A stretch of DNA of 64,000 bases. It comes from an uncultured archaeon. Its GTDB lineage: Archaea; Thermoplasmatota; Penumbrarchaeia; JASLWR01. Below the pieces are notes generated by a model. That model made no database searches, had not been told where the DNA came from, and worked only from the letters and a program-made list of their open reading frames with translations. Numbering within the stretch: the stretch's first letter is position 1; every line of letters begins with the position of its first letter. The stretch is taken from assembly GCA_964342815.1 (NCBI GenBank), contig CAYFHS010000001.1, positions 279,107 to 343,106 of the forward strand, read 5' to 3'. This document shows positions 7,841-8,320 of the stretch, piece by piece. The position numbers were made by a program, and so were the translations under genes.

Positions 7841-8320
7841 GGTGACATAGAAACGCAGTTTCTATTAACCCCGACATTGCATCGCGGATGCAATTAGGGC
7901 TAAGTGAAAGGTTGTTTCACTGTCGCCTAATAAAATCTCTGATTTTATGTTGGGAAACAGCAGAATGCCTGTTTTGCTCCGGTGACTTTTCAAGTCTCCT
8001 GCACCCTCGGGAGTTTACTCTCTGCGGGTACACCCGTTTTCAAACGGGGGATGAATGGACCTGTAGCTAGACTTGGCGAAGGTACAGCAAAGCCTGAAAG
8101 GGTTTGCGTAATGAAATGCGCATCTTCGGGTGTTTCCGAGGATACCCATTTCATTCCTGTCAATCAAAGATACTCGACGAAATAAGTTTCGTCTGTACCC
8201 TCGGGATGTATCCCTGCGGGTTGTTCTGCATCCTCGGCTAGTGAGCCTGCGGATGCAGTTGTATCTCGATGCAACGGAGTATAACGGGTAAGATCAGAAG
8301 AATCTTTGATTCTTCAGGGT
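7841..8320 (+). ncRNA. Candidate large structured non-coding RNA (unassigned family)
   Basis: About 14 closely packed stems plus enclosing helices (7841-7847 with 7921-7927; 8110-8118 with 8147-8155), a cUUCGg loop at 8124-8129 and a GAAA loop at 8096-8099; G-U wobbles fall on the + strand; no credible ORF. Confidence 0.55.

Follow-up and report, generated by a model that had tools for sequence, protein, structure and literature searches.

A nested cluster of small structured repeats, probably non-autonomous mobile elements, in an intergenic gap of an uncultured Thermoplasmatota archaeon

The window, meaning the whole stretch of 64,000 nucleotides that was analysed, corresponds to C1:279107-343106 of a 4.35-Mb Thermoplasmatota assembly with a completeness of 89% (G000; "C" plus a number denotes a contig and "L" plus a number an extracted locus). 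Two giant ORFs of 2026 aa (1344-7424, minus strand) and 1722 aa (9642-14810, plus strand) diverge on either side of a 2.2-kb gap in this window. The gap holds a composite block at 7834-8342 that runs, on the plus strand, from the 5′ end ATCCGCAG to the 3′ end AAATGTGGGTTG (short form TGTGGGTTG) and is followed by TTCAT. A preliminary description of the DNA had given the feature an extent of 7841-8320; its natural boundaries, which are fixed exactly by pairs of filled and empty insertion sites, proved to be slightly wider. The relatives compared were G001, a sister species of the same genus, G003, which belongs to the same family, and G002, the fourth genome of the order.

To the right of the block, on the minus strand, lies a broken copy of a gene for a basic protein of ~140-150 aa (8351-8964), and a diverged duplicate of this gene's 3′ end is found at 7736-7800. 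The protein family has ~10 paralogues in G000, with intact ORFs in eight of nine examples examined (e.g. C15:28545-29141 and C1:221911-222445); a faint SarA/Rot-like match in Pfam and a faint DnaD-like match in PHROGs were all that these two collections returned for it. The 5′ side of the small gene is adjoined by a tandem array of ~9-13 units of 23 bp (8933-9231), and similar 23-bp arrays occur at C1:222463-222532, beside an intact paralogue, at C14:55766-56286 and at C30:47752-47896.

The public runs listed as containing the stretch are DNA runs of marine metagenomes, with no RNA run among them, and both G000 and its nearest relative are marine. Exact-pattern scans gave matches in four contigs of one Thermoplasmatota MAG and in six JGI metagenome contigs; for an exact 24-nt pattern of the region, the sole named genome was a Thermoplasmatota MAG from the Eastern Tropical North Pacific. 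Contigs from four DNA runs, which are low-depth pieces, bore out the sharp borders between modules. In run X3, one contig joins position 7385 to 7579 with 17 other letters between them, thereby skipping the start and promoter region of the 2026-aa ORF; with a single contig and 21 letters on the shorter side, support for this joint is weak.

The block region is non-coding and strongly structured, as had been proposed. All of the stems listed in the preliminary description are present, as are both enclosing helices, the cUUCGg loop and the long-range pair GGTACAG/CTGTACC, with inverted repeats I3 and I5 among the inverted repeats found. As RNA, the plus strand folded at -188.9 kcal/mol compared to -140.4 ± 5.9 kcal/mol for shuffled sequences (z -8.2), and the minus strand folded at -172.1 kcal/mol (z -9.0). 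As single-stranded DNA, the two strands folded equally well (-98.2 and -98.1, z -8.1 and -8.4). The structure is real, lies far beyond chance and is not specific to one strand. The claim that the G-U wobbles all lie on the plus strand was true in part, with 16 G-U pairs in the plus-strand fold and 9 in the minus-strand fold. Rfam gave no match at the gathering score anywhere in the window, and at E<=10 over 7300-9700 it returned only two chance miRNA matches, both outside the block.

The very low folding energy relative to shuffles, together with the enclosing helices and long-range pairs, favored the original proposal that a single, dedicated multi-junction non-coding RNA of ~480 nt, perhaps a ribozyme or switch, is encoded here. 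However, relative to shuffles the minus strand folds as well as the plus strand, units occur in both orientations within the stretch, and the sister species lacks the entire block in its orthologous gap. At full length the region matched no other locus; sub-modules alone recur, and their order and orientation differ. The long-range pairs, moreover, are pairing between inverted repeat copies: GGTACAG/CTGTACC joins P1 strands of inverted neighboring units (P1 is the first helix of the core unit defined below). Likewise, the two strands of the supposed switch, AATCAAAGA and TCTTTGATT, can indeed pair, but neighboring inverted copies of one unit explain this pairing. The single-RNA reading is thus already largely refuted, and we give it next to no credence. 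What seemed to be a large novel RNA is instead a pile-up of small repeats, a mosaic of units each of which recurs elsewhere in other combinations, and the large folding energy is probably the sum of unit hairpins and of pairing between neighboring inverted units.

Nor is the region the orphan it had been taken for. BLAST of the region against its own genome found pieces of it at 31 places, with no full-length match and with sub-modules in differing combinations and orientations, and dozens more lie in G001 and G003. On a crude map of 1309 G000 gaps, this gap was the most repeat-covered. A profile of the best-conserved module led to more than 60 places that share a core of ~75 nt (range ~67-80 nt), and a covariance model of this core, R1, was built. 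Counting full-length units at E<=1e-5 among 150 candidates scored per genome, we found at least 90 in G000, at least 114 in G001 and at least 116 in G003, that is, in three genomes of two genera. G002 had none at this threshold and one weak match (E 1.6e-4), and 37 other genomes of the class and phylum had 0-1 each. Two full-length units lie elsewhere in the window, at 18211-18284 (plus strand) and 63895-63969 (minus strand), and this pair scored 70.3 and 74.8 bits, respectively. This covariation-supported repeat, at ~100 copies per genome in three Thermoplasmatota genomes, is a previously undescribed family. R1 can be used to mask its units, which would spare future scans of these genomes false clusters of "new RNAs".

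From 5′ to 3′, the core consists of a segment ending in CCY, the trinucleotide GYA, a 4-bp hairpin (P2) with a YACU loop, the dinucleotide GA, a middle segment (RGG-YRC), a single A, a hairpin (P3), G-K-A, a 2-bp mini-hairpin (P4) with a [G/A]NA loop, G-N and a 3′ segment. The 5′ segment and the 3′ segment both complement the middle segment, the former giving P1 and the latter a short helix termed P-alpha. Folded on one strand, the core therefore has an irregular hairpin made of P1, a conserved 5′-GYA/GA-3′ internal loop and P2, while P-alpha closes a three-way junction with P3 (5-7 bp) and P4 (2 bp). Support is best for the inner three pairs of P1 and for the first four of P-alpha, which together place the hairpin beside the three-way junction. 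The internal loop was GTA/GA in 28 of 37 copies and GCA/GA in five of 37, and the third residue of the P4 loop was A in 36 of 37. A descriptor of the P1-GYA/GA-P2 hairpin matched 86 times in gaps, compared to 12-22 times for permuted loops.

The five core helices are strongly supported by compensatory changes. In a MAFFT alignment of 27 copies (A4), 91-92% of helix cells were paired, as against 29-47% when the partners were slid, and the covariation score was 0.59-0.63 compared to <=0.14 for controls. None of 500 shuffles reached the observed score, although such shuffle statistics overstate the support because copies of a mobile family share descent. Among 48 distinct copies from several genomes, 96.3% of cells were paired and 16 of the 17 pairs showed double-sided changes, in an alignment fitted to the covariance model, which favors the structure. 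Covariation among homologues, which the preliminary description had named as a check, thus indicates that the helices are under selection for pairing. In A4, Watson-Crick covariation is seen at G13-C29 and in columns 19-28, the two loops lie opposite one another, and the junction strands measure 1, 3 and 2 nt. Judged by eye on this alignment, the canonical geometry of a kink-turn (tandem G.A after a 3-nt bulge), a bulge-helix-bulge (two bulges 4 bp apart) or a hammerhead (CUGANGA/GAAA core) was not matched, and mapping of the core by eye to an integron attC site or a tetraloop receptor was likewise rejected.

With this core in hand, the block at 7834-8342 resolves into at least four core copies in alternating orientation (-, +, -, +) and another repeat module. 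It opens with ATCC-GCAG (7834-7841, plus strand), which comprises the 5′ strand of an outer P1 helix, pairing with GGAT at 8140-8143, and the GYAG tag; TTT|ATCCGYAG opens other blocks as well. Directly after GCAG comes module A (7842-7952, plus strand), a three-hairpin domain closed by GGTGACA/TGTCGCC together with a ATAAAATC hairpin. Copies of module A in G001 (C128, C92 and C142) are 87-89% identical and always have GYAG before them, whereas sites lacking the module read ATCCGYAG|GAAACAGCAG; its hairpins also show compensatory changes (alignment A1). GGAAAC (7953-7958, plus strand) is the 5′ strand of an outer P2 helix and pairs with GTTTCC at 8132-8137, and GTTTCC-GA-GGAT (8132-8143, plus strand) supplies the 3′ strands of both outer helices, a closing also found in the aligned copies.

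This outer frame encloses the first two units. Unit 1 is inverted (7960-8034, minus strand; R1 29.8 bits, E 1.6e-7 within the region) and includes, at ~8003, the first of three small UC/UGC hairpins pointed out previously, all of which are P1-P2 hairpins read from the opposite strand. Unit 2 is full length (8054-8128, plus strand; R1 78.8 bits), shows P1-GUA/GA-P2, P3, P4 and P-alpha, and forms a row of alignments A4 and A5. A frame of the form ATCC-GYAG-GAAAC...GTTTCC-GA-GGAT is common to G000 C6 and C21 and to G001 C125 and C153. Because the frame with the same two units recurs as a 243-nt block in G001 and as a matching ~190-nt stretch at G000 C6, composites are copied as wholes.

Units 3 and 4 are placed within what is elsewhere a terminal hairpin, CCCACATTT...AAATGTGGG. 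Unit 3 is inverted and has an enlarged P3, the GACGAAA/TTTCGTC hairpin (8137-8226, minus strand; R1 42 bits, E 1.8e-10); part of it, 8162-8228, recurs at C79, C7 and C1:86. Unit 4 (8225-8296) is core-like and weaker, scoring 19.6 bits with R1 on the plus strand and 16.5 bits on the minus strand for the hairpin alone. Its first hairpin (8232-8252) is oppositely oriented, and 8224-8291 matches C19:38702-38770 at 91%. The hairpin GAAGAATC-TTT-GATTCTTC follows (8297-8315, plus strand), whose 3′ arm also complements 8162-8174 as inverted repeat I5. The block ends in the 3′ terminal tail GGTGATAACGGGCAAATGTGGGTTG (8319-8342, plus strand); tails at C19:38757-38786 and C1:86345-86368 are 100% identical to it, and blocks in G001 and at metagenome loci likewise end in this tail. 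TTCAT at 8343-8347 (plus strand) is outside the element and represents a preferred target or flank.

The same two ends bound blocks of 76, 88, 88, 103, 112, 175, 295, 371 and 710 nt elsewhere in G000, so that blocks between ATCCGYAG and TGTGGGTKR span 76-710 nt, with the window block at 509 nt. Near-terminal hairpins are present on both sides (P1/P2 at the 5′ end and the CCCACAGA/TCTGTGGG type at the 3′ end), along with an imperfect terminal complementarity of 7-8 nt. In the orthologous gap of G001 (C71), flanks corresponding to 7300-7724 and 9262-9360 are kept and 7725-9261 is absent altogether. This G001 gap instead carries, exactly between window positions 7595 and 7596 (TTTTTTTCT^TTGTGAGG), a complete 67-nt core with nothing duplicated, inserted at TTTCT^TTGTG. 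Four further pairs showed blocks of 183-479 nt in G001 or in metagenome contigs where G000 has 0-29 nt. In the cleanest of these, whose empty site is on G000 C3, the empty site reads CTCTTT^TTCAT and the filled one TTTT-ATCCGCAG...CTGTGGGTGA-TTCAT. Of 18 element 3′ ends, 16 are directly followed by TTCAT, which also stands in one empty site. The five filled/empty pairs are clean insertions into T-rich DNA without clear target duplication, a duplication of 2-3 T being able to hide within the T runs. None of the orthologous gaps compared between G000 and G001 was identical: in five, one genome had an insertion where the other was empty or almost empty, and in another four the lengths differed.

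Two other models of the elements were considered and set aside. A DDE-type MITE would have terminal inverted repeats, a target duplication and a homogeneous length, which the block lengths and the lack of a clear duplication do not fit. A circular or rolling-circle unit was suggested by similar 5′ and 3′ segments, with some units overlapping in tandem; the example pair showed no overlap once filters were off, and in the minimal 67-nt insertion P1 and P-alpha have 3 bp each and do not overlap. The orthologous G001 gap also holds other dispersed repeats (C71, L052:467-657), namely a T-rich stretch and a GACTTGCCAAG...CTTGGCAAG hairpin, of which 95-100% identical copies lie at G000 C4:125553, C2:179882 and C5:94139.

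Since the block, the broken small gene (winged-helix-like; 8351-8964) and the 23-bp array lie together within the interval missing from G001, the block could function as one component of an integrated module of plasmid or virus type, for instance as a single-strand origin. The second, diverged 3′ end of the gene that remains to the left of the block, and one other gap (C30) with core units near a 23-bp array, are in keeping with such a module. Nonetheless, no core unit lies close to the intact paralogues of this gene at C15 and C1:221k or to the array at C14. Elsewhere, ~90 units show no linkage to the gene family, the window's own copy of the gene is broken, and phage and plasmid collections gave no match. 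We regard this explanation as very improbable.

A stronger competitor is that the core units form a multi-copy family of small structured RNAs with a function, or RNA modules that bind proteins and are released from longer transcripts by processing; the block would then be an array of their genes. Five strongly covarying helices, unpaired G and A residues that are invariant, GNRA-like and UUCG loops, an excess of G-U over A-C pairs on the GYAG strand (27 versus 10) and a plus-strand RNA fold 17 kcal/mol better than that of the minus strand all speak for RNA. The genomic distribution of the units speaks against it, as it does against a cis-acting or locus-specific RNA. Units are strictly intergenic, with apparent matches inside giant ORFs lying upstream of the likely true starts, and they occupy both strands of one block. 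With crude ORF calls, there was no orientation bias toward neighboring genes (sense/antisense 7:7) and no gap-type bias, the distribution equalling background without a preference for positions downstream of genes. Inspection by eye showed no promoter-like sequence conserved at a set distance upstream of the units, no compared G000/G001 orthologous gap was shared intact, and Rfam gave no match. GNA mini-hairpins are very stable as DNA. The [G/A]NA triloop on the 2-bp P4 stem resembles them and would be weak as RNA, a hint toward DNA. Overall, we consider a family of functional RNAs unlikely, though worth keeping in view.

We therefore favor, as the probable explanation, that 7834-8342 is a conglomerate of small, transposase-free (non-autonomous) mobile repeats, a nested cluster like those of REP/BIME, PATE or SMR elements. 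Its repeat nature, copy number, covariation, defined ends, insertion polymorphism and absence at the orthologous site are direct observations. Units would insert in either orientation into T-rich intergenic DNA, and also into loops and ends of resident units, giving BIME-like mosaics that would then be copied as whole blocks. The fold may be what a structure-specific enzyme acting in trans (HUH/Y1-like or of unknown type) recognizes in a single-stranded DNA intermediate, as in REP and IS200/IS605-derived elements, and any effects on neighboring genes, such as on transcript ends or stability, would be a by-product.

Some observations sit less easily with mobile repeats of this kind: the units lack a linked enzyme, four to five helices with unpaired invariant purines seem more than a transposase should require, and the G-U excess and GNRA/UUCG-type loops equally fit RNA. 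This elaborate fold, its purines and the G-U excess are compatible with either RNA or single-stranded DNA. There is a slim chance that the ~75-nt core is more than a transposase handle and represents a new class of self-sufficient structured nucleic acid (a small RNA or a single-stranded DNA), in which the conserved three-way junction and the GYA/GA loop have an activity of their own, such as cleavage/ligation, guiding or recruitment of a host enzyme. If true, this would explain the spread to ~100 copies in genomes without a linked dedicated transposase.

For the mobile-repeat explanation, a Y1 transposase is a candidate partner. In a survey of complete genomes, the IS200 type was the only Y1 subclass seen in Archaea (PMC6006769). 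G000, at 89% completeness, had no match to the Y1 transposase family (PF01797) or to TnpB (PF07282), while four Y1 matches were found in G001 and one in G003. No GYAG hairpin or R1 unit lay within 1.5 kb of the Y1 genes of G001, G003, G006 and G010, and a REPtron-like layout, in which a Y1 gene is flanked by repeats, was not found in G000, G001, G003, G006 or G010. The ends of an IS200-like element in G001 match other short remnants in G000, not core units.

Among known systems, BOX, RUP and SPRITE of Streptococcus pneumoniae are modular, mosaic, highly structured intergenic repeats with ~100 copies and a variable number of sub-modules; they would resemble the present family in these respects, but they are bacterial and unrelated in sequence. 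The family is also like the bacterial GTAG-tagged REP superfamily, with its BIMEs and REPINs, in being extragenic at ~100 copies per genome, in having an imperfect hairpin with a conserved GTAG/GYAG tag and covarying stems with G-T pairs, and in its clusters of alternating unit orientation and its patchy spread among close relatives (PMC3733652, PMC2817692). GTAG REPs are defined by their association with RAYT genes, have been reported in bacterial phyla only, and sometimes have a tag degenerate to GYAG (PMC3733652). Unlike in REPs, the tag of the present core lies within an outer helix and has its last G paired, the unit is ~75 nt long with three further helices, no unit-flanked RAYT gene was found, and the 3′ side of genes is not preferred. 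If the units are mobile without RAYT, they would offer a system for seeking the enzyme behind enigmatic transposase-free archaeal repeats.

In Archaea, the nearest precedents are the PATEs and SMRs (small mobile repeats) of Haloquadratum. In H. walsbyi, PATEs and SMR-A/B, as well as haloarchaeal MGE conglomerates, are transposase-free, measure 50-200 nt and have near-terminal palindromes or short terminal inverted repeats; PATEs and SMRs make no target duplication and insert into the palindromes of other elements to give nested conglomerates, and the mobilisation of SMRs is unexplained (PMC3119063). The present family is likewise archaeal, transposase-free and nesting, without clear target duplication. 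In contrast with PATEs, however, no sequence relation of its ends to those of IS200/IS605 was found, nor any TnpA/TnpB-encoding element that shares them. In contrast with both PATEs and SMRs, its core combines a conserved fold of several helices, invariant residues at the junction and a GYAG loop, and phylum and habitat differ.

Several other features of these genomes were observed along the way. The G001 IS200-like element encodes an intact Y1 transposase of 155 aa (L041:1423-1890), and short remnants at G000 C40:4956-5104 and C36:43040-43117 match both of its ends. These are the only IS200-like remnants in G000; they have no relation to the core units and resemble PATE-like derivatives that kept the termini alone. 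The only G000 ORF with GYAG hairpins on both sides is PNPase-like (C11:20126-22504; L079:727-3105), with the architecture of a bacterial-type polynucleotide phosphorylase (two RNase PH domains, KH and S1) in an archaeal assembly. A separate repeat with a 65-nt period, AGCCGTCCC...TTTACGTGTAA, occurs at G000 C13:86282-86589, at 17687-18052 in the window and in many other gaps. Its copies stand in tandem as well as scattered, a single gap having up to 57 partner matches, and it often adjoins GACATAGAAWC...GWTTCTATTA hairpins, which are like the first hairpin of module A.
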